In this document: in pieces, positions 4,064 through 59,585 of the stretch | Numbering within the stretch: the stretch's first letter is position 1 | Layout of the letters: the number at the start of each line of letters is the position of its first letter | NCBI RefSeq assembly: GCF_056712565.1 | Contig: NZ_CM160072.1 | Length of the DNA stretch: 64,000 nt | Reading direction: 5' to 3' (one strand) | Position numbers and translations under genes: made by a program | Notes under the pieces: generated by a model | Databases searched by the model: none | Told to the model about the DNA's origin: nothing | Seen by the model: the letters and a program-made list of their open reading frames with translations, nothing else

Positions 4064-5014
4064 ATGCAGATCCTGTTGGCCAACCCGCGTGGTTTTTGTG
4101 CCGGGGTAGACCGCGCTATCAGCATTGTTGAAAACGCGCTGGCCATTTACGGCGCACCGATATATGTCCGTCACGAAGTGGTGCATAACCGCTACGTGGT
4201 CGATAGCCTGCGCGAGCGTGGGGCTATCTTTATTGAGCAGATTAGCGAAGTACCGGACGGCGCGATCCTGATTTTCTCCGCACACGGTGTTTCTCAGGCA
4301 GTACGTAACGAAGCGAAAAGCCGCGATTTGACGGTGTTTGATGCCACCTGTCCGCTGGTGACCAAAGTGCATATGGAAGTCGCCCGCGCCAGCCGTCGTG
4401 GTGAAGAATCTATTCTCATCGGTCACGCCGGGCACCCGGAAGTGGAAGGGACGATGGGCCAGTACAGCAACCCGGAAGGGGGAATGTATCTGGTCGAATC
4501 GCCAGACGATGTGTGGAAACTGACGGTCAAAAACGAAGAGAAGCTCTCCTTTATGACCCAAACCACGCTGTCGGTGGATGACACGTCTGATGTGATCGAC
4601 GCGCTGCGTAAACGCTTCCCGAAAATTGTCGGTCCGCGCAAAGATGACATCTGCTACGCCACGACTAACCGTCAGGAAGCGGTACGCGCCCTGGCAGAGC
4701 AGGCGGAAGTAGTACTGGTGGTTGGTTCGAAAAACTCCTCCAACTCCAACCGTCTGGCGGAACTGGCCCAGCGTATGGGCAAGCGCGCGTTTTTGATTGA
4801 CGATGCGACAGATATCCAGGAAGAGTGGGTGAAAGAGGCGAAATGCGTCGGCGTGACTGCTGGCGCATCAGCTCCGGATATTCTGGTACAGAACGTAGTC
4901 GCACGTTTACAGCAGCTTGGCGGTGGCGAAGCCATTCCGCTGGAAGGTCGTGAAGAAAACATTGTTTTCGAAGTGCCGAAAGAGCTGCGTGTCGATATTC
5001 GTGAAGTCGATTAA
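4064..5014 (+). CDS. ispH: 4-hydroxy-3-methylbut-2-enyl diphosphate reductase
   Basis: 316 aa from the ATG at 4064 ([19 protein letters not shown]...), with the conserved Cys of the 4Fe-4S LytB fold; the longer track ORF from 3980 is an in-frame upstream extension overlapping fkpB. Confidence 0.95.
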
Positions 5015-5037
5015 GTCATTAGCAGCCTAAGTTATGC

Positions 5038-5067
5038 GAAAATGCCGGTCTTGTTACCGGCATTTTT
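5038..5067 (+). terminator. rho-independent terminator after ispH
   Basis: Hairpin aaatgccggtcttgttaccggcatttttt (GC stem followed by a T-run). Confidence 0.7.
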
Positions 5068-5079
5068 TATGGAGAAAAC

Positions 5080-5994
5080 ATGCGTTTACCTATCTTCCTC
5101 GATACAGACCCCGGCATTGACGATGCCGTTGCCATTGCCGCCGCGATTTTTGCCCCCGAACTCGATCTGCAACTGATGACCACTGTCGCGGGTAATGTTT
5201 CGGTAGAGAAAACCACCCGCAACGCCCTGCAACTGCTGCATTTCTGGAATGTGGATATTCCGCTTGCCCAGGGCGCTGCCGTACCACTGGTTCGTGCGCC
5301 GCGCGATGCGGCATCTGTACACGGTGAATCGGGAATGGCTGGCTATGACTTTGTTGAACACAACCGTCAGCCACTGGGTATACCGGCGTTTCTGGCAATT
5401 CGTGATGCCCTGATGCGTGCGCCAGAGCCCGTTACCCTGGTGGCCATCGGCCCGTTAACCAATATTGCGCTGTTACTTTCACAATGCCCGGAATGTAAGC
5501 CGTATATTCGCCGTCTGGTGATCATGGGCGGTTCTGCTGGTCGCGGCAACTGCACACCAAACGCCGAGTTTAATATCGCTGCCGATCCAGAAGCGGCAGC
5601 CTGTGTCTTCCGTAGCGGCATCGAAATCGTCATGTGCGGTCTGGATGTCACCAATCAGGCAATATTAACCCCTGACTATCTCGCTACTTTGCCGGAATTG
5701 AATCGCACCGGAAAAATGCTACACGCCCTGTTTAGCCACTACCGTAGCGGCAGTATGCAAAGTGGACTACGTATGCACGATCTTTGCGCTATCGCCTGGC
5801 TGGTGCGCCCGGAATTGTTCACTCTCAAACCGTGTTTTGTCGCGGTAGAAACTCAGGGTGAATTTACCTCAGGCACGACGGTTGTTGATATCGACGGTTG
5901 CCTGGGCAAACCAGCCAATGTACAGGTGGCGCTGGATCTGGATGTGAAAGGCTTCCAGCAATGGGTGGCTGAGGTGCTGGCCCTGGCGCTCTAA
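5080..5994 (+). CDS. rihC: non-specific ribonucleoside hydrolase
   Basis: 304-aa ORF with the N-terminal DTDPGIDD nucleoside hydrolase signature; synteny. Confidence 0.93.
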
Positions 5995-6527: not shown

Positions 6528-7364
<837 letters not shown>

Positions 7365-7769
7365 CCACAAGATATTTATGGTGATGCAAAAACAACACAT
7401 TTAATTCGTTGAATATAAAGGGCTTTAATTTTTGGCCCTTTTATTTTTAGTGTTATGCTTTTAAATCTAATGCAAATGCTGAAAATTACATGTTTTGTAT
7501 TCTGTTTTTGTTGTTTTAATGTAAATTTTGACCATTTGGTCCACTTTTTTCTGCTCATTTTGATTTCATGCAATCTTCTTGCTGCGCAAGCGTTTTCCAG
7601 AACATGTTATATGATCTTTTTGTCGCTTAATGCCTGTAAAACATGCATGAGCCACAAAATAATATAAAAAATCCCGCCATTAAGTTGACTTTTAGCTCCC
7701 ATATCTCCAGAATGCCGCCGTTTGCCAGAAATTCGTCGGTAAGCAGATTTGCATTGATTTACGTCATCA

Positions 7770-7819: not shown

Positions 7820-8968
7820 TTGATTAAGTCAGCGCTATTGGTTCTGGAAGACGGAACCCAGTTTCACGGTCGGGCCATAGGGGCAACAGGTTCGGCGGTT
7901 GGGGAAGTCGTTTTCAATACTTCAATGACCGGTTATCAAGAAATCCTCACTGATCCTTCCTATTCTCGTCAAATCGTTACTCTTACTTATCCCCATATTG
8001 GCAATGTCGGCACTAATGACGCCGATGAAGAATCTTCTCAGGTTCATGCCCAAGGTCTGGTGATTCGCGACCTGCCGCTGATTGCCAGCAACTTCCGTAA
8101 TACCGAAGACCTCTCTTCTTACCTGAAGCGCCATAACATCGTGGCGATTGCCGATATCGATACCCGTAAGCTGACGCGTTTACTGCGTGAGAAAGGTGCT
8201 CAGAATGGCTGCATTATCGCAGGCGATAACCCGGATGCGGCGCTGGCATTAGAAAAAGCCCGCGCGTTCCCAGGTCTGAACGGCATGGATCTGGCAAAAG
8301 AAGTAACCACCGCAGAACCCTATAGCTGGACACAAGGGAGCTGGACACTGACCGGCGGCCTGCCAGAAGCGAAAAAAGAAGACGAGCTGCCGTACCACGT
8401 CGTGGCCTACGATTTCGGTGCCAAGCGCAACATCCTGCGTATGCTGGTGGATAGAGGCTGTCGCCTGACCATCGTTCCGGCGCAAACTTCTGCGGAAGAT
8501 GTGCTGAAAATGAATCCGGACGGCATCTTCCTCTCCAACGGTCCTGGCGACCCGGCCCCGTGCGATTACGCCATTACCGCTATCCAGAAATTCCTCGAAA
8601 CTGATATTCCGGTATTCGGCATCTGCCTCGGTCATCAGCTGCTGGCGCTGGCGAGCGGTGCGAAGACTGTCAAAATGAAATTTGGTCACCACGGCGGCAA
8701 CCATCCGGTTAAAGATGTTGAGAAAAATGTGGTGATGATCACCGCCCAGAACCACGGTTTTGCGGTGGATGAAGCAACATTACCTGCAAACCTGCGTGTC
8801 ACACATAAATCCCTGTTCGACGGTACGTTACAGGGCATTCATCGTACCGATAAACCGGCGTTCAGCTTCCAGGGACACCCGGAAGCCAGCCCTGGTCCAC
8901 ACGACGCCGCGCCGTTGTTTGACCACTTTATCGCGTTAATTGAGCAGTACCGTAAAACCGCTAAGTAA
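7820..8968 (+). CDS. carA: carbamoyl-phosphate synthase small (glutaminase) subunit
   Basis: 382 aa counted from the in-frame TTG at 7820 (carA is known to use a UUG start; protein begins [21 protein letters not shown]); the track ORF from ATG 7793 adds 9 codons. Catalytic Cys in GICLGHQ present. Confidence 0.93.
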
Positions 8969-8985
8969 TCAGGAGTAAAAGAGCC

Positions 8986-11900
8986 ATGCCAAAACGTACA
9001 GATATAAAAAGTATCCTGATTCTGGGTGCGGGCCCGATTGTTATCGGTCAGGCGTGTGAGTTTGACTACTCTGGCGCGCAAGCGTGTAAAGCCCTGCGTG
9101 AAGAGGGTTACCGCGTCATTCTCGTGAACTCCAACCCGGCGACTATCATGACCGACCCGGAAATGGCTGATGCAACCTACATCGAGCCGATTCACTGGGA
9201 AGTGGTACGCAAGATTATTGAAAAAGAGCGCCCGGACGCGGTGCTGCCAACCATGGGGGGGCAGACGGCGCTGAACTGTGCGCTGGAGCTTGAGCGTCAG
9301 GGCGTGCTGGAAGAGTTCGGCGTCACCATGATTGGTGCCACTGCCGATGCGATTGATAAAGCCGAAGACCGCCGCCGTTTCGACGTAGCGATGAAGAAAA
9401 TCGGTCTGGAAACTGCGCGTTCCGGTATCGCTCATTCAATGGAAGAAGCGCTGGCGGTTGCCGCTGAAGTTGGCTTCCCGTGCATTATTCGCCCATCCTT
9501 TACCATGGGCGGTAGCGGTGGCGGTATCGCTTATAACCGTGAAGAATTTGAAGAAATTTGCGCCCGCGGTCTGGATCTTTCTCCGACTAAAGAGCTGCTG
9601 ATTGATGAGTCGCTGATCGGCTGGAAAGAGTACGAGATGGAAGTGGTGCGTGATAAAAACGACAACTGCATCATCGTCTGCTCTATCGAAAACTTTGATG
9701 CGATGGGCATCCACACCGGTGACTCCATCACTGTCGCGCCAGCCCAAACGCTGACCGATAAAGAATATCAAATCATGCGTAACGCCTCGATGGCGGTACT
9801 GCGTGAAATCGGCGTTGAAACCGGTGGTTCCAACGTCCAGTTTGCGGTGAACCCGAAAAACGGTCGCCTGATTGTTATCGAAATGAACCCACGCGTGTCT
9901 CGCTCCTCTGCGCTGGCGTCGAAAGCCACTGGTTTCCCGATTGCCAAAGTGGCGGCGAAACTGGCGGTGGGTTACACCCTCGACGAGCTGATGAACGACA
10001 TCACCGGTGGGCGTACTCCGGCCTCCTTCGAGCCGTCCATCGACTATGTGGTTACTAAAATTCCTCGCTTCAACTTCGAGAAATTCGCCGGTGCTAACGA
10101 CCGTCTGACCACTCAGATGAAATCGGTTGGCGAAGTGATGGCGATTGGTCGCACGCAGCAGGAATCCCTACAAAAAGCGCTGCGCGGCCTGGAAGTGGGC
10201 GCAACTGGCTTCGATCCGAAAGTGAGTCTCGACGACCCGGAAGCGCTGACTAAAATCCGCCGCGAACTGAAAGATGCTGGCGCAGAGCGTATCTGGTATA
10301 TCGCTGATGCCTTCCGCGCGGGCCTGTCTGTAGACGGTGTATTTAATTTGACCAACATTGACCGCTGGTTCCTGGTACAGATTGAAGAGCTGGTGCGTCT
10401 GGAAGAGAAAGTCGCAGAAGTGGGCATCACTGGCCTGCACGCTGAATTCCTGCGCCAGCTGAAACGCAAAGGCTTTGCCGATGCGCGTCTGGCAAAACTC
10501 GCGGGCGTGCGTGAAGCAGAAATCCGCAAGCTGCGCGACCAGTATGACCTGCACCCGGTTTACAAGCGCGTGGATACTTGTGCGGCAGAGTTCGCCACCG
10601 ACACCGCTTACATGTACTCCACTTATGAAGAAGAGTGCGAAGCGAATCCGTCCACCGATCGTGAAAAAATCATGGTGCTCGGCGGCGGCCCGAACCGTAT
10701 CGGTCAGGGTATCGAATTCGACTACTGCTGTGTACACGCCTCGCTGGCGCTGCGCGAAGACGGTTATGAAACCATTATGGTTAACTGTAACCCGGAAACC
10801 GTCTCCACCGACTACGACACCTCTGACCGTCTCTACTTCGAGCCGGTAACTCTGGAAGACGTGCTGGAAATTGTGCGTATTGAGAAGCCGAAAGGCGTTA
10901 TCGTCCAGTACGGCGGTCAGACCCCGCTGAAACTGGCGCGCGCGCTGGAAGCTGCTGGCGTACCGGTTATCGGTACCAGCCCGGATGCCATCGACCGTGC
11001 GGAAGACCGTGAACGCTTCCAGCATGCGGTTGAGCGTCTGAAACTGAAACAACCGGCGAACGCCACCGTTACCACCATCGAAATGGCGGTTGAGAAAGCG
11101 AAAGAGATTGGCTACCCGCTGGTGGTGCGTCCGTCTTACGTTCTCGGCGGTCGGGCGATGGAAATCGTCTATGACGAAGCTGACCTGCGTCGCTACTTCC
11201 AGACAGCGGTCAGCGTATCTAACGATGCGCCAGTGTTGCTGGACCACTTCCTTGATGACGCAGTAGAAGTTGACGTGGATGCCATCTGCGACGGCGAAAT
11301 GGTGCTGATTGGCGGCATCATGGAGCATATTGAGCAGGCGGGTGTGCACTCCGGTGACTCCGCATGTTCACTGCCAGCTTACACCTTAAGTCAGGAAATT
11401 CAGGATGTGATGCGCCAGCAGGTGCAGAAACTGGCCTTCGAACTGCAGGTGCGCGGCCTGATGAACGTGCAGTTTGCGGTGAAAAACAACGAAGTCTACC
11501 TGATTGAAGTTAACCCGCGTGCGGCGCGTACCGTTCCGTTCGTCTCCAAAGCCACCGGCGTACCGCTGGCAAAAGTGGCGGCGCGTGTGATGGCTGGCAA
11601 ATCGCTGGCTGAGCAGGGCGTAACCAAAGAAGTTATCCCGCCGTACTACTCGGTGAAAGAAGTGGTGCTGCCGTTCAATAAATTCCCGGGCGTTGACCCG
11701 CTGTTAGGGCCAGAAATGCGCTCTACCGGGGAAGTAATGGGCGTGGGCCGCACCTTCGCTGAAGCGTTTGCCAAAGCGCAGCTGGGCAGCAACTCCACCA
11801 TGAAGAAACACGGTCGTGCGCTGCTTTCCGTGCGCGAAGGCGATAAAGAACGCGTGGTGGACCTGGCGGCAAAACTGCTGAAACAGGGCTTCGAGCTGGA

Positions 11901-14288: not shown

Positions 14289-15074
14289 TTAACGTCCTTT
14301 CCACACTGGATCGCGCTTCTCGGCAAACGCCAGCGGCCCTTCAATGGCATCCTCCGAATGCAGAACCGATGGATAGTGTTTCAACACGCCGCTGCGAATA
14401 TAGCGATACGCTTCTTCTACCGGCATTTCACTGGTGGTGCGGTAGATCTCTTTCAGCGCCGCAATCGCCAGCGGAGCGCTGTTAACCAGCTGCTGCGCCA
14501 GTTCGCGGGCGTTATCCATCAGTTCCGCCTGGCTAACCACGCGGTTGACTACCCCCCAACGCAGCGCCTCTTCTGCGCCCATTCGTCTGCCGGTCATCAC
14601 CATTTCATTGACGATGGCAGGCGGCAGGATCTTCGGCAGACGCAGCACGCCGCCGCTGTCAGGAACGATGCCCAGTTTGGCTTCCGGTAGGGCGAAGCTG
14701 GCGTTATCGGCACAAACAATAAAATCTGCCGCCAGCGCCAGTTCAAAGCCGCCGCCAAAGGCATAGCCGTTCACAGCGGCGATGACCGGTTTGTCGAGAT
14801 TGAAAATTTCGGTTAATCCCGCAAAACCTCCCGGGCCAAAGTCAGCATCCGGTGCTTCGCCTTCTGCTGCCGCTTTTAAATCCCAGCCCGCGGAAAAGAA
14901 TTTCTCTCCGGCACCGGTAATAATGGCGACACGTAATTGCGGATCGTCACGGAAATTTAGAAATACTTCGCCCATTTCAAAGCTGGTTTTTGCATCAATA
15001 GCATTCGCTTTTGGACGATCAAGGGTAATTTCCAGAATTGATCCATTGCGGGTCAGATGTAATGATTCACTCAT
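14289..15074 (-). CDS. caiD: crotonobetainyl-CoA hydratase (enoyl-CoA hydratase family)
   Basis: 261 aa from ATG 15074 ([27 protein letters not shown]...); the track ORF extends 36 codons further upstream. Confidence 0.92.
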
Positions 15075-36836: not shown

Positions 36837-37652
36837 ATGCAGTATTGGGGAAAAATCATTGGCGTGGCCGTGGCCTTAATAATGGGCGGCGGCTTTTGGG
36901 GCGTAGTATTGGGCCTGTTAATTGGCCATATGTTTGATAAAGCCCGTAGCCGTAAAATGGCGTGGTTCGCCAACCAGCGTGAGCGTCAGGCGCTGTTTTT
37001 TGCCACCACTTTTGAAGTGATGGGGCATTTAACCAAATCCAAAGGTCGCGTCACGGAGGCTGATATTCATATCGCCAGTCAGTTGATGGACCGAATGAAT
37101 CTGCATGGCGCTTCCCGTACTGCGGCGCAAAATGCATTCCGGGTGGGAAAATCAGACAATTACCCGCTGCGCGAAAAGATGCGCCAGTTTCGCAGTGTCT
37201 GCTTTGGTCGTTTTGACTTAATTCGTATGTTTCTGGAGATCCAGATTCAGGCGGCGTTTGCTGATGGTTCACTGCACCCGAATGAACGGGCGGTGCTGTA
37301 TGTCATTGCCGAAGAGTTAGGCATCTCCCGCGCCCAGTTTGACCAGTTTTTGCGCATGATGCAGGGCGGTGCACAGTTTGGTGGCGGTTATCAGCAGCAA
37401 TCTGGCGGTGGTAACTGGCAGCAAGCGCAGCGTGGCCCGACGCTGGAAGATGCCTGTAATGTGCTGGGCGTGAAGCCGACGGATGATGCGACCACCATCA
37501 AACGTGCCTACCGTAAGCTGATGAGTGAACACCATCCCGATAAGTTGGTGGCGAAAGGTTTGCCGCCAGAGATGATGGAGATGGCGAAGCAGAAAGCGCA
37601 GGAAATTCAGCAGGCCTATGAGCTGATAAAGCAGCAGAAAGGGTTTAAATAA
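36837..37652 (+). CDS. djlA: DnaJ-like membrane co-chaperone
   Basis: 271 aa from ATG 36837 ([14 protein letters not shown]...); N-terminal TM segment and C-terminal J-domain with HPD (SEHHPDK). Confidence 0.93.
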
Positions 37653-37654
37653 GT

Positions 37655-37795
37655 TTCAACGTGTAGGCCTGATAAGACGCGGTAGGCCGGATAAGACGCG
37701 CCAGCGTCGCATCCGGCGAGCAGCATCAGACAATCGGCGCAAAATTGCCGGATGCGGCGTGAACGCCTTCTCCGGCCTACCGAACTTCGCCAGCG
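37655..37795. repeat. REP / BIME cluster
   Basis: gtaggcctgataagacgcggtaggccggataagacgcgccagcgtcgcatccggc ... gccggatgcggcgtgaacgccttctccggcctacc. Confidence 0.75.
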
Positions 37796-37801
37796 TGACT
37801 A

Positions 37802-38461
37802 TTAAAAATCCGCTGGTGCTTTAAACGTCATACTATTGCCATACGCCGGATGGGTAATCGTCAGCATCTCTGCATGTAGCAACAAACGCGGTGCCATTGC
37901 TCTCGCTTCTGGTGATGCATAAAAACGATCGCCGAGAATCGGATGACCCAGCGCCAGCATATGCACACGCAGCTGATGCGAACGCCCGGTAATCGGTTTT
38001 AACACCACTCTTGCCGTGTTATCCGCTGCATATTCCACCACTTCATATTCCGTCTGCGCAGGTTTACCTGTTTCGTAACAGACTTTCTGTTTCGGGCGGT
38101 TTGGCCAGTCGCAAATCAGCGGCAGATCCACCAGACCTTCCGCAGGGGATGGATGCCCCCAGACGCGGGCCACATACTGCTTTTTCGGCTCGCGCTCGCG
38201 GAACTGGCGTTTTAACTCCCGCTCCGCGGCTTTGGTCAGCGCCACTACAATCACGCCGCTGGTAGCCATATCCAGACGATGCACCGATTCTGCCTGCGGA
38301 TAATCACGCTGAATGCGCGTCATCACGCTGTCTTTGTGCTCTTCCAGACGACCCGGCACAGACAACAAACCGCTCGGCTTGTTGACCACCATAATATGGT
38401 CATCCTGATACAGGACAACCAGCCAGGGGTCCTGCGGCGGATTGTAGTTTTCCATCCCCAT
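37802..38461 (-). CDS. rluA: rRNA/tRNA pseudouridine synthase A
   Basis: 219-aa ORF with catalytic motif HRLDMATSG. Confidence 0.93.
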   Translation of the reverse strand: MGMENYNPPQDPWLVVLYQDDHIMVVNKPSGLLSVPGRLEEHKDSVMTRIQRDYPQAESVHRLDMATSGVIVVALTKAAERELKRQFREREPKKQYVARVWGHPSPAEGLVDLPLICDWPNRPKQKVCYETGKPAQTEYEVVEYAADNTARVVLKPITGRSHQLRVHMLALGHPILGDRFYASPEARAMAPRLLLHAEMLTITHPAYGNSMTFKAPADF

Positions 38462-44667: not shown

Positions 44668-44945
44668 GACTCCTTCGTGCCGGATGCGCTTTGCTTATCC
44701 GGCCTACAAAATCGCAGCGTGTAGGCCTGATAAGACGCGTCGGCGTCGCATCAGGCGGTGAATGCCGGATGCGCTTTGCTTATCCGGCCTACAAATCCGG
44801 AACGCGTAGGCCTGATAAGACGCGCCAGCGCCGCATCAGGCGGTGAATGCCGGATGCGCTTTGCTTATCCGGCCTACAAATCCGGAACGCGTAGGCCTGA
44901 TAAGACGCGTCAGCGTCGCATCAGGCGTTACATACCTGATGCGGC
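44668..44945. repeat. BIME array: three tandem copies of an approximately 96-bp REP-containing unit
   Basis: gccggatgcgctttgcttatccggcctacaaa ... gtaggcctgataagacgcg ... gcatcaggcggtgaat repeated three times between araD and araA. Confidence 0.85.
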
Positions 44946-49346: not shown

Positions 49347-49392
49347 TAAGAAAGAAGGGGGGGAACCCCCTTGCTTTCTTCATCTGACGTTA
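49347..49392 (+). terminator. putative rho-independent terminator immediately after the araC stop
   Basis: aagaaagaaggggggg-aa-cccccttgctttctt hairpin followed by a T-rich tract. Confidence 0.55.
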
Positions 49393-49860
49393 TTTATATA
49401 TTTCACGGGGGATTAATTTTAGTTATTTTTAGTTGAATCGTTTTACCTGAATTATTTTTTTTCTTGATAAAATATCGACAACGATTTCTTTTTGTAAAAA
49501 TAAAACGAAGGCTTATGTATCGGGATACCCATCATGAACATATTGTCCGGTTGCATCAGGAGAATATATCAAGCGGTTTGTTCATCGTAGGAACACCACA
49601 TTGAGCGGTTATGGCAGGCACTTCACGCCACCATAAATGCCGTTCGATGTGGCAGTTGTTGAAAAAAGTACGGCATTCTATGAAAAACGCCAGTTACTCC
49701 CTCAGAGGAGAACATGGTCTGGCAAAAGTGTAGCGGCATCAGGCGCAGCTATCTTTGTAAATTCATTCATAAAATGAATTGTATACAAAAAAATATTGAA
49801 AAATAATATTTTTCCTTATTGATATTATTTGCTATACGTTTTTTTTGAGGGGAGATTGTG

Positions 49861-50709
49861 ATGAGCAAACGTAACGATATTACTGATGGAATATTTGCAA
49901 CAACGAAAAAGTATGGATTAGTTTATACCGAAGAGTTAGGTTGGATCGATTTGGGGCATGCTCAGGGACAAGATGCCAGAATATTAAAAAGAAAATTGGA
50001 GCAAGAACATTTTTCAACATATTACGATGAATTTCATGATTGGTATTTTCCTGTTGATTATCATCAGGAAATGGGAATTCGGAAAAAAATATTAGGAGTA
50101 GATCTTACATTTCATACCGGTGTTTATACGAAGGTTATGGTTCGTTCATGTCTTTCACCCACTCTTAAAGCAAGAGTTGCCTTAACGTTAATGTATGGAA
50201 CTGCGAAGAGGTTTGAAGCATGGCAAAACTCATTTATTTTTAACTGGTATACTGATAGCGGATTTAGTGCAGAAGATTTAGTCTCAGACTTGATTGGTTT
50301 TTATCGTGTATTTGGAACAGGCCCCGATCCACTTTTATTGGCAAAACCTTTATCTTACACAAAAGCCTTACAAATATGGGATACATATGGAGCGCCAGGG
50401 AATTTTAAAAATACTGAGTTTACGCCATTCTTATTTACAACCCATCCTCCTTTTAAAAAAAATCAACTAATAAAAAAGAAGCTTCCAGAATGGTTAAATT
50501 ATATAAAGCCATTAGATGAGTCTTTTTCAATATTGTTATATAATCAATATAATAATAGACCTGTTACTAATTATTATAAAGATAAAAACAGAATAAATCA
50601 TGAGTTGTATAGTTCATTATCAAGTTCGGGAGCTATAAAGTTTTCAGAATCTCCCTTTGAAAGACCGCTTTTTCTTTTCTTAAACCCTCATTATCCGCAC
50701 AGGTCGTGA
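49861..50709 (+). CDS. hypothetical protein, 282 aa, no signal peptide, family unassigned
   Basis: Uninterrupted 283-codon ORF in roughly 30% GC DNA (unlikely by chance); RBS gaggggag 6 nt upstream of ATG 49861 (GTG at 49858 also in frame); product rich in K/N/Y/F: MSKRNDITDGIFATTKKYGLVYTEELGWIDLGHAQGQDARILKRKLEQEHF... Confidence 0.7.
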   Translation: MSKRNDITDGIFATTKKYGLVYTEELGWIDLGHAQGQDARILKRKLEQEHFSTYYDEFHDWYFPVDYHQEMGIRKKILGVDLTFHTGVYTKVMVRSCLSPTLKARVALTLMYGTAKRFEAWQNSFIFNWYTDSGFSAEDLVSDLIGFYRVFGTGPDPLLLAKPLSYTKALQIWDTYGAPGNFKNTEFTPFLFTTHPPFKKNQLIKKKLPEWLNYIKPLDESFSILLYNQYNNRPVTNYYKDKNRINHELYSSLSSSGAIKFSESPFERPLFLFLNPHYPHRS

Positions 50710-50715
50710 GTAGAG

Positions 50716-51138
50716 ATGTCAAAATATATTTATATTTTATTATCATTTTTAGTTTTATTCTTTATATTTTTCTATGCTTATATCTCATTGATGTCAAAGG
50801 AACATCACTATACACAGCATGAACTTTCCCCATTTTTCCTTTATACGCCAGAGAGTTTGCGAAATTTGCCAAACATATCAAACGTAGCCGAGTATAGCTA
50901 TTACTATAATGTTGATGATATGCAAACAAGAGTGATTGTTACATGGCGAAATATAGATAACATTTTTCTTCAGAAAGCAAAGCTAATAGATTTTTTGAAA
51001 AGAATGGGACCGAGTCTACAAAACGATTGTATATGGTTTTTTCATGATAAAAGTGATTATGCAAATAATTTCCAGCGTTATTGCATCATTGAGCACCGTG
51101 ATTCTCTGCAGGTGGAATATTTTGAGACTATCGAATGA
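50716..51138 (+). CDS. hypothetical membrane-anchored protein, 140 aa, family unassigned
   Basis: Starts 6 nt after the upstream ORF stop (operon / translational coupling); N-terminal hydrophobic segment YIYILLSFLVLFFIFFYAYISL followed by an approximately 110-aa soluble domain. Confidence 0.65.
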   Translation: MSKYIYILLSFLVLFFIFFYAYISLMSKEHHYTQHELSPFFLYTPESLRNLPNISNVAEYSYYYNVDDMQTRVIVTWRNIDNIFLQKAKLIDFLKRMGPSLQNDCIWFFHDKSDYANNFQRYCIIEHRDSLQVEYFETIE

Positions 51139-51159
51139 TAGGCAGAGGGTGTCTTTTGT

Positions 51160-55422: not shown

Positions 55423-55459
55423 TTTGCACCTCACAAAAGAGTGGCAAAGGACTTGAGAA

Positions 55460-55560
55460 GGAGCCTCAAATCCCTTCGCCGGCGTTATCCGGATCAGGTT
55501 CGACGGGTATTTTCTCAGCGCACGCGGCTGCGTGGCACCCCGTTGAGAACGGCGTTAGTG
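55460..55560 (-). ncRNA. TPP riboswitch (thi box) in the thiBPQ leader
   Basis: Minus strand carries the conserved aptamer elements GGGGUGCC, CUGAGA and ACCUGAUCCGGAUAACGCCGGCGAAGGGA directly upstream of thiB. Confidence 0.8.
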
Positions 55561-55585: not shown

Positions 55586-57241
55586 TCATGGATCCGGTGG
55601 TGCAAACCACGCTGATTTAAAATCGAACCAGCCGAGGGTGTTCATGCGCAGGCCGCGCATACTACGTTGCCCCTGAATGATCAGCCAGTGGTGGATAAGT
55701 GGCACCATTGCTTTGCTGGCGACCAGTTGTTGGCACCAGTTCGCCAGATTCATTTCGCCATTGCGCCAGCGGGCGGCGTCGGCTTGCCAGTCGATCGGAA
55801 TACAGTGTTGGAGCAGCGGCACCTCGCACAAGTGCGCGAACAGCGAAAAATCCAGCGGCAGCGTAAAGTTGGCGCTGTTAAGCCAGATATCGCTCTCGAT
55901 CTCTCCTTCATGCCACTGATCGTAGCTGATCTCTTTGATTTCCAGCGTGACCTGGTGACTTGCCAGAATCTGCTGCATGATCCCGGCAATCACCCGATGC
56001 TCGCTGTGATCCTGATAAAAGGTCAGGGTGAGGCTTTCCAGACCAGCCGGTTTTTCGCTCTTTATGGTGCGGGCATGGTGCCAACGGGGGAGCAGTCCAT
56101 AAGCCGGGAACCACAGTTGCTGGTACTGTTCCTCAGCGAAATAGACCAGATTCGTCGGAGAAAGCACATAGCTTACCCAGTCTCTGACTTGCTGATTCGC
56201 CCCTCGATGGGTGCGGCTGTCGAACAGTAAATAGTAGCAACCTTCCTCCAGGCGGCTTTCAATCTCTTTTTCCTCGCCCTGTGGACCTTTTAGCATCAGC
56301 CCTCCGGCTGGCTCGTCGGCAATTTCCGGCAGAACCCAGACGTTAACTTCGTCGATTAATGCCCGGTAACCGAAGAAGTCATCGAATGCCTGAATTTTCA
56401 GTTGATTGGTGCTGTTGCGGATCACCGCATACGGACCGGTGCCGATGGGATGGCTGGCAAAGTTACTGAGGGTTTCCCATTCGCGCGGCAGGATCATTGC
56501 CGGAACTTGCCCCAGCAGTAACGGCAACCAGCGGTCCGGTTGCGTGAGATGGATATCCAGCGTCCAGGGCGTCGGCGACACAATGTTAGCAATATGCGAA
56601 TAGAGCGGAAGCGTATTGATTCGTTTTAAAGAGGCGATCACATCGTCCATTTCCAGTTCACGACCATGGTGAAAATGGACTCCTGGACGCAAAAAGAAAC
56701 GCCAGTGAAGCGGTGATATTTGCTGCCAGTGGTGTGCGATGTCTGCTTCCAGTTCCCCATTTTCCTCATTTATGCGCGTTAGCGAACTGAAGATTTGCCG
56801 GGCGATATGGGTTTCAGAACGGCGCAATGCGCTGCCAGGTAGCAGATTACGCAACGGACGATAGTAGAGCACGCGCAGGATGTGCCGCCCCTGGCGGAAG
56901 CTGCGGCCCAGATGAGAAACCAGCATTTGCCGCACAGTCGCTTTGTCGCCAACCAACTGCACTAGTTGGTCGATACGATCCTGCTCCAGCAGGTCTTCCG
57001 CCCGCTGTTGCTGAAGCGCCAGCCCGGTATAGAGGAATGTCAGGCGTGAACGTTTACCGCGCCCGACTTCCGCTTCCCACGTCAGCCAGCCGCGATCCTG
57101 CATGGTGTTGAGCAGGGTGCGCATATGACGACGCGAGCAACTCAGTAACGCTGCCAGTTCGTTGAGCGTGGTCTCCTGAGATTTACCCTCGCAGCATTGC
57201 CACAGGCGGATGAACTGTTGTTGCAGACGAGCAGATGGCAT
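55586..57241 (-). CDS. sgrR: sugar-phosphate stress transcriptional regulator
   Basis: 551 aa from ATG 57241 ([15 protein letters not shown]...); N-terminal HTH domain plus solute-binding-protein-like domain; divergent from sgrS. Confidence 0.93.
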
Positions 57242-57308
57242 AAAAGGGGAACTCCTGCGCAAAAGACAGCAATTTTATTTTCCCTATATTAAGTCAATAA
57301 TTCCTAAC

Positions 57309-57536
57309 GATGAAGCAAGGAGGTGCCCCATGCGTCAGTTTTATCAGCACTATTTTACCGCGACAGCGAAGTTGTGCTGGTTGCGTTGGTTAAGCGTCCC
57401 ACAACGATTAACCATGCTTGAAGAGCTGATGCAGTGGGAGGGGAGTCATTCTGACTACTGATTTGCGGACATCATGTGTGACTGAGTATTGGTGTTAATC
57501 GCCACGCCAGCAGTGATTATCTGCTGGCTTTTTTCT
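57309..57536 (+). ncRNA. sgrS: small RNA SgrS (glucose-phosphate stress sRNA)
   Basis: 5' end gatgaagcaagg(a)ggtgcccc; embeds the sgrT ORF; conserved 3' base-pairing region agtattggtgt; terminator ccagcagtgattatctgctgg plus U-run. Confidence 0.85.
57330..57461 (+). CDS. sgrT: small protein SgrT (PTS glucose transporter inhibitor), divergent allele
   Basis: 43-aa ORF MRQFYQHYFTATAKLCWLRWLSVPQRLTMLEELMQWEGSHSDY within sgrS; roughly 60% identical to the K-12 SgrT I recall. Confidence 0.75.
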   Translation: MRQFYQHYFTATAKLCWLRWLSVPQRLTMLEELMQWEGSHSDY

Positions 57537-57568
57537 TTTTGGCGATTGAGTGCCGGACGGTGTACAAA

Positions 57569-59585
<2,017 letters not shown>

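Follow-up and report, generated by a model that had tools for sequence, protein, structure and literature searches.

A setA-less sgrS-leuD junction is probably the native arrangement of Escherichia, and the setA-bearing block of K-12 a later import

The SgrT proteins of Escherichia coli K-12 and Salmonella are known to inhibit transport by PtsG. SgrR activates setA, the gene located just downstream of sgrS, and the role of SetA in the stress response is unclear (2014 review, PMC4021124). A comparative study of SgrS (Horler & Vanderpool 2009, NAR 37:5465, PMC2760817) reported a conserved sgrR-sgrS control region, found the CFT073 and Sakai alleles to be 88% identical to K-12 SgrS, included CFT073 SgrT (EcCFT) in its alignment, and marked setA, where present, in its synteny figure. 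The same study described a mutated sgrT start codon in Sakai, which we saw again in the Sakai sequence, as well as a GGGG/CCCC hairpin that inhibits sgrT translation and is present in just 3 of 15 E. coli strains. More recently, it was stated that the 'AB1 sublineage acquired ... SetA' (González-Alba et al. 2019, PMC6896753). The setA-less arrangement, the CFT073-type SgrT and the gain of setA in A/B1 are therefore already published. Our only additions are that the setA-less junction is common to several Escherichia species and that the K-12 locus appears to contain a mosaic block with crossovers in sgrT and leuD. Loss of setA followed by its regain at the same site is not spelled out in either the 2009 or the 2019 paper.

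Here we analyze this locus in a stretch of DNA of 64,000 nucleotides, referred to as the window, in which the wider neighbourhood is that of E. coli: thiB / sgrR / sgrS-sgrT / leuDCBA. The features of the locus are listed in the table below. Our preferred reading, to which we assign a probability of roughly 0.85, is that the window carries a native, intact Escherichia glucose-phosphate stress module, that setA was lost before the radiation of the genus, and that the block present in K-12 was imported later.

Table. Features of the sgrR-sgrS-leuD locus, with positions in the window
Feature	Position	Strand	Description and basis
sgrR	55586-57241	-	SgrS activator, senses sugar-phosphate stress; NCBIfam equivalog NF010149, 1127 bits (cutoff 476)
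sgrR-sgrS divergent control region, including the sgrS promoter	57242-57308		67 nt; K-12 comparison
sgrS, dual-function small RNA	57309-57535	+	Rfam RF00534, 228.9 bits
sgrT, PtsG-inhibitor family	57330-57461	+	43 codons + TGA; translation, Pfam PF15894
SgrS base-pairing seed	57470-57495	+	CATCATGTGTGACTGAGTATTGGTGT; K-12 alignment, seed scan
sgrS intrinsic terminator	57506-57540	+	terminator scan and RNA fold
sgrS-leuD spacer	57536-57568		33 nt; from the end of the Rfam match to the leuD stop codon
leuD, 3-isopropylmalate dehydratase small subunit	57569-58174	-	TIGR00171, 343.9 bits; ATCC 11775 annotation
Apparently native Escherichia stretch, replaced by the setA-bearing block in K-12-type genomes	57424-57641		K-12 alignment, blastn

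The sgrR gene is so named in the record of the E. coli type strain ATCC 11775, which is identical to the window here. Within the control region a single base (57258) differs from K-12, and a promoter-like element, AAGACA-16-TATATT, lies at 57263-57290 (+), just 5' of the Rfam sgrS start. The small RNA itself, divergent from sgrR across this conserved intergenic region, matches RF00534 end to end (model positions 1-232 of 232, E = 1.2e-65, gathering score 37). Its 26-nt seed has no differences from K-12 even though it is embedded in a stretch that is about 26% divergent, and the 22-nt seed core is found exactly in 44 Enterobacteriaceae species genomes; ptsG, with whose mRNA the seed is predicted to pair, lies outside the window. 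The RNA ends in an 8-bp GC-rich hairpin (57506-57528) followed by TTTTTTCTTTTT (U6CU5) at 57529-57540, as in a Rho-independent terminator with a poly-U tail. Compared with K-12, the stem is the same but for its closing pair (G-C in the window, G-T in K-12), with further changes in the loop and the tail; over the terminator region, the window haplotype is similar to Citrobacter. Promoter-like matches on the minus strand within sgrS were dismissed as coincidental, since they overlap the constrained seed and one of them recurs in K-12. Two ORFs, 57517-57615 (-, 32 aa) and 57539-57805 (+, 88 aa), were likewise set aside as out-of-frame or antisense by-products of leuD.

All sequence parts of the SgrR/SgrS/SgrT module are thus intact, with an unchanged seed and a normal terminator. 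By extension from K-12 and Salmonella, sugar-phosphate stress would lead SgrR to switch on the divergent sgrS promoter, the seed of SgrS together with Hfq would pair with the ptsG and manXYZ mRNAs and stop the synthesis of new transporters, and SgrT made from the same RNA would block the PtsG already in place. Transcription is predicted to stop at the hairpin and U-tract, leaving 33 nt to the convergent leuD. What would be missing from this scheme is the SgrR-driven efflux arm provided by SetA, whereas the paralogue setB would still be available in E. coli generally: it encodes a protein with 52% identity to SetA and is a core gene, present in 5413 of 5426 complete genomes.

The open reading frame of sgrT is intact and lies inside sgrS, with an ATG at 57330, a TGA at 57459-57461 and AGGAGG 8 nt upstream of the start. 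The encoded protein, MRQFYQHYFTATAKLCWLRWLSVPQRLTMLEELMQWEGSHSDY, is WP_001248768.1, an accession annotated also in ATCC 11775, CFT073 and IAI39. The first-pass annotation had described it as substantially different from K-12 SgrT (MRQFYQHYFTATAKLCWLRWLSVPQRLTMLEGLMQWDDRNSES). The C-terminus is indeed a different one, but the difference is smaller than claimed: 36 of 43 residues are identical, changes being confined to residue 32 (G32E in the window) and residues 37-40, 42 and 43. Residues 1-31 and 33-36 are the same, and the tails read EGSHSDY in the window and DDRNSES in K-12. The Pfam PF15894 core (residues 3-37) scores equally well in both, 50.0 bits for the window and 49.6 for K-12 against a cutoff of 27; an NCBIfam profile search returned no model matching SgrT. 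Residues invariant among nine aligned sequences, including W17, L18, P24-L27 and L33-W36, are all present in the window protein. The tail is variable among genera: in non-Escherichia loci (Salmonella, Citrobacter and others) SgrT is 37-40 aa long, 40 in most, and its ends differ. According to the alignment, E32 occurs in seven of the eight other SgrT sequences, with G in K-12 and T in S. arizonae. Among the E. coli and other Escherichia sequences examined, G32 is found only in K-12, and the setA-bearing B1 strain IAI1 has E32. The SgrT allele of the window is the one common in Escherichia, and it is the tail of K-12 SgrT that looks imported.

A second difference affects translation signals. 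At the Shine-Dalgarno base 57321 the window and IAI1 read AAGGAGGUG and K-12 reads AAGGGGGUG, a single A/G change; the window sequence is AAGGAGG and does not form the GGGG/CCCC hairpin of K-12. The K-12 5' hairpin folds at -12.4 kcal/mol, whereas the window RNA adopts another fold at -8.1 kcal/mol. Because the inhibitory 5' hairpin of K-12 is missing from the window RNA, the window-type module probably makes more SgrT than that of K-12. The K-12 G in the Shine-Dalgarno sequence and the codon change to Gly32 (window positions 57321 and 57424) appear to be point changes of the K-12 sublineage that lie outside the import of the setA block, because IAI1, which does carry setA, has the window bases at both positions.

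In K-12, the interval from sgrS to leuD consists of 27 nt, setA (1179 nt) and 48 nt; in the window it is reduced to the spacer. The observation in the first-pass annotation that sgrS adjoins leuD was borne out by the Rfam match, which ends at 57535, 33 nt short of the leuD stop codon at 57569. So was the absence of setA, which encodes an MFS sugar efflux transporter (TIGR00899) and is not found directly 3' of sgrS here: a tblastn search with K-12 SetA and a sensitive blastn search with setA plus both intergenic regions, run across the whole 64 kb, returned only chance matches (best E = 0.16), without any trace of a remnant.

To place this junction among E. coli, we used a 901-nt sgrR-sgrS-leuD query, over which the type strain ATCC 11775 matches the window at 100% identity. 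Of 5426 complete E. coli genomes, 2159 (about 40%) carry the window-type junction uninterrupted; another 3241 genomes of this set form a separate class with 90-95% identity, in which the match breaks at the sgrS end. An assembly artefact as the cause of the junction can accordingly be rejected, as thousands of complete genomes share it. K-12 setA is present in 3241 of the 5426 genomes, and in 3228 of these the match reaches 99% identity or more. Since this count equals that of genomes with the K-12-type sgrS haplotype, presence of the gene and haplotype are tied one-to-one. At megablast sensitivity, setA is therefore not located elsewhere in genomes with the window junction; the direct search covered the 64-kb window, and for the rest of the source genome this statement comes from the population counts. 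The setA matches over the E. coli set numbered 3242, three of them on plasmid records and 3239 chromosomal. Among individual strains, setA is absent from ATCC 11775 and CFT073 (which we take to belong to phylogroup B2), IAI39 (presumably F), Sakai (O157:H7; presumably E) and 042 (presumably D), and present in K-12 and IAI1 (assumed to be A and B1, respectively). The suggestion that the window represents a different configuration of the stress response holds in that the SetA arm is missing, unlike in K-12, but the configuration is not peculiar to the strain.

To look beyond E. coli, 100,044 species-representative genomes were scanned with the 22-nt SgrS seed, and SgrR, SetA, LeuD and LeuC were mapped around the resulting 44 loci. 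Outside Escherichia, setA directly follows sgrS in all 36 loci that extend far enough downstream; these come from Citrobacter, Salmonella arizonae/diarizonae, Klebsiella, Raoultella, Enterobacter, Pluralibacter, Siccibacter and Superficieibacter, and three further loci were too short downstream to be scored for setA. By contrast, leuD directly follows sgrS in four Escherichia genomes, namely E. albertii, E. whittamii, Escherichia sp. E1V33 and SCPM-O-B-8794. The last of these is labelled E. coli, but its sgrR is just 89% identical to that of the window, and it is therefore another Escherichia species. E. fergusonii is missing from the results of this exact seed scan. The spacers of these four Escherichia genomes are homologous to that of the window, with which they share the pattern GGCTTTTTTCTTTTTGGCGATTGAG..GGACGG.GTACAAACTAACGCAT, and 042 and IAI39 have a homologous spacer too. 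Within the spacer, CTTTTTGGC is similar to the sequence found after the terminator in Citrobacter, CGTTTTGGC, and TGCCGGA...CAAAC to a hairpin that lies after the stop codon of setA in Citrobacter and Salmonella. It thus seems that remnants of the former sgrS-setA and setA-leuD intergenic regions were joined in the spacer when setA was cleanly deleted.

Given that the outgroups carry setA and that the Escherichia genomes share the spacer, setA appears to have disappeared in one clean event that predates the split among the Escherichia species sampled. By its shared spacer the window belongs with these genomes and would represent the native setA-less haplotype of Escherichia. The scenario would start from an ancestor of Enterobacteriaceae with the order sgrS-setA-leuD, from which a single clean deletion, preceding the divergence of the sampled Escherichia species, would have left the 33-nt spacer. 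This reverses the direction proposed in the first-pass annotation, which had treated the window as having lost setA from a K-12-like state: the same junction is found in B2, D, E and F strains and in four other Escherichia species, and it is K-12 that appears derived. The annotation had itself named ancestral absence, or setA residing elsewhere, as what would overturn its view. The former is what the comparison points to, setA being already gone before the sampled species diverged, whereas the latter was not found, as the 3241 genomes with setA are the 3241 genomes with the K-12-type haplotype.

Alignment with K-12 further revealed a step-like footprint of divergence around the indel. Upstream, at 57000-57423, there are 10 differences in 424 nt (2.4%), followed by 29 in the 112 nt of 57424-57535 (26%), none of them in the seed; on the other side, 17 differences in the 73 nt of 57569-57641 (23%) give way to 16 in the 559 nt of 57642-58200 (2.9%). 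In blastn comparisons, identity between the window and K-12 is 97.8% in sgrR (segment 56500-57241), 98.9% in the 5' part of sgrS, 97.0% in the rest of leuD and 96.4% in leuC, as against 79.5% in the 3' part of sgrS and 80.3% in the last 24 leuD codons. At the protein level, LeuD of the window differs from that of K-12 only at residues 191, 194 and 201, all inside the divergent block. Other Escherichia are 95-97% (sgrS 3') and 85-93% (leuD 3') identical to the window at these edges, and K-12 is as far from the window there as Citrobacter or Salmonella, although the identities are noisy given that the edges are short (112 and 73 nt). The alignment proposed as a check in the first-pass annotation thus confirmed that setA is missing, but block edges that are about 20% divergent between flanks of 97-99% identity speak against a simple deletion. 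A deletion cannot give such a step, and one of the two haplotypes has therefore probably come by homologous recombination.

Several observations suggest that the K-12-type block is the one that moved. The setA-less type is found in several species and the setA block is near-invariant in E. coli, which argues that the latter is an import. Moreover, in MOD1-EC7003, a separate Escherichia species, sgrR is 92% identical to K-12, whereas the sgrS 3' part is 100% and setA 98.9% identical, in a comparison that reaches 451 nt downstream of the seed. A block this similar despite the divergence of sgrR implies recent horizontal exchange between species. From the flank divergence, we infer that K-12 is the derived state. 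In this scenario, homologous recombination would have exchanged the native stretch of the E. coli A/B1 lineage for a block with setA that came from a deeply diverged relative outside the sample. The crossovers would fall within sgrT, near codon 32, and within leuD, near codon 177, and both the SgrT tail and the LeuD C-terminus of K-12 would be foreign, imported sequence. As for the donor, K-12 setA is 72.5-82% identical at the nucleotide level to setA of all sampled non-Escherichia, about as for sgrR, and the donor would therefore have been about as far from Citrobacter and Salmonella as Escherichia itself. A search for proteins similar to K-12 SetA yielded near-identical E. coli sequences only among the best 120 matches listed, and E. 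fergusonii is disfavoured as a donor by its published 81% SgrS identity to K-12.

The simplest reading of the window, a recent deletion of setA specific to the strain or its clone from a K-12-like locus, deserves next to no credence. Some deletion did happen, since setA follows sgrS in every sampled non-Escherichia relative, and the junction is clean and free of coding remnants, just as a deletion would leave it; however, the same junction in 2159 complete E. coli genomes (B2, D, E, F) and in four other Escherichia species, together with flanks of the indel about 20% diverged from K-12, is more than a recent event could produce. The junction shared with E. albertii and E. whittamii already refutes this reading. 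A different possibility is that presence and absence of setA are an old polymorphism of Escherichia, inherited vertically without any import, with A/B1 and MOD1-EC7003 having kept the gene. The distance of K-12 setA from that of Citrobacter and Salmonella (77-80% identity) is close to that of sgrR (78-81%), as expected for a gene of the Escherichia lineage, and the K-12 leuD 3' block is nearer to other Escherichia (83-88%) than to Citrobacter (72-79%). Nevertheless, we consider this explanation unlikely: it requires that both alleles survived while the entire genus radiated, the haplotypes are some 20-26% apart at the edges where the window differs from other Escherichia species by 3-15%, and the fact that K-12 and MOD1-EC7003 are nearly identical in the block but 92% identical elsewhere speaks for horizontal movement. 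Under import and old polymorphism alike, the state of the window is not a recent loss.

One could also turn the direction of movement around and suppose that it was the setA-less haplotype that moved: a deletion allele from a single lineage would have spread by recombination to many Escherichia species and E. coli phylogroups, displacing an original locus of the K-12 type. Among setA-less Escherichia, the sgrS 3' block is 95-97% identical, compared with 88-91% in the adjacent sgrR, which is what a spreading allele might leave behind, but such conservation is also expected from the constraint on the seed and terminator. The leuD 3' block follows species divergence (85-93%), and it is the setA block that shows almost no diversity (at least 99% identity in 3228 of the 3241 genomes carrying it) and is confined to a narrow set of phylogroups, making a mobile deletion allele highly improbable. 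Early loss of setA followed by import of the K-12-type block therefore remains the reading that we favour.

The removal of setA brings sgrS and leuD into direct convergence. On the minus strand, no consensus intrinsic terminator for leuD was found in either the window or K-12, and this feature therefore does not distinguish the haplotypes. Read on the leuD strand, the sgrS hairpin is followed by GUGGCGAUU and not by a U-tract, which would make it a poor terminator for the leu operon. It could be imagined that the hairpin nonetheless doubles as a leu terminator and that read-through of leuABCD, antisense to the seed, couples leucine transcription to SgrS. From about 10 nt past the hairpin, read-through transcripts would be perfectly complementary to the SgrS seed, and the coupling would operate in setA-less Escherichia through a sponge effect or transcriptional interference, K-12 being insulated by setA from leu read-through across SgrS. 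From the sequence, we regard such coupling as very unlikely.

Other differences were observed elsewhere in the window. A TPP riboswitch (55453-55552, -, Rfam, 66.1 bits) lies upstream of thiB, and its K-12 counterpart is annotated as the small RNA SroA. In the window and K-12 just about 33 nt separate this riboswitch from sgrR, while espY2, a gene for a T3SS effector, lies between the two in IAI39, Sakai and 042 (locus coordinates 14289-14858, 4673-5242 and 6759-7328, respectively). Between araC and yabI, the window has about 1.8 kb (49350-51154) missing from K-12, with two ORFs, 49858-50709 (+, 283 aa) and 50716-51138 (+, 140 aa), that have no Pfam match. CFT073 and IAI39 have two hypothetical proteins at this position, IAI39 also a fragment of an IS630 transposase, and 042 and Sakai are without the insert. 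At 37650-37802, about 150 nt of the window stand against about 1.5 kb in K-12 that includes yabP and yabQ (K-12 locus coordinates 8179-9687), and these two genes are therefore absent from the window. Finally, blast matches offset by 85 nt at 44678-44943 indicate tandem repeats of about 85 nt, which are also present in K-12 and are positioned between araD and araA.

As a useful caution, K-12 is not the reference state for the sgrS-leuD locus. The SgrR-driven SetA pump is missing in about 40% of complete E. coli genomes, among them the type strain, uropathogenic B2 strains and O157:H7, and it is likewise missing in the other Escherichia species sampled. Most strains, including that of the window, probably rely on SgrS and a better-translated SgrT and not on SetA. 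In its fine structure, the locus would offer a tidy example of a gene lost before a radiation and regained at the same site by homologous recombination.

Among described systems, CFT073 comes closest to the window. Its sgrS is 100% identical over 226 nt, its SgrT, SgrR and LeuD have the same accessions, and setA is lacking as well; the difference is that IS200C is located right after the U6 of the sgrS terminator, whereas the window spacer is uninterrupted. This element (locus coordinates 6935-7640) lies between sgrS and leuD in CFT073 and likewise in strain E166, which shows that the spacer takes up insertions in some B2 and avian strains. Sakai has the same setA-less junction and is 98.5% identical over sgrS and the spacer, but its sgrT starts with ATT, whereas the window keeps ATG; the Sakai record has no sgrT annotation. 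IAI1 has setA as in K-12, but the Shine-Dalgarno sequence and E32 of the window type. K-12 has the same gene order outside setA, a single base of difference in the promoter region and an identical seed, and differs by its 1179-nt setA, another SgrT tail, G32 and the Shine-Dalgarno G hairpin, none of which is found in the window. Salmonella, Citrobacter, Klebsiella and Enterobacter share with the window the divergent sgrR/sgrS pair, the seed, the embedded sgrT and the terminator but, unlike the window, keep setA directly 3' of sgrS.
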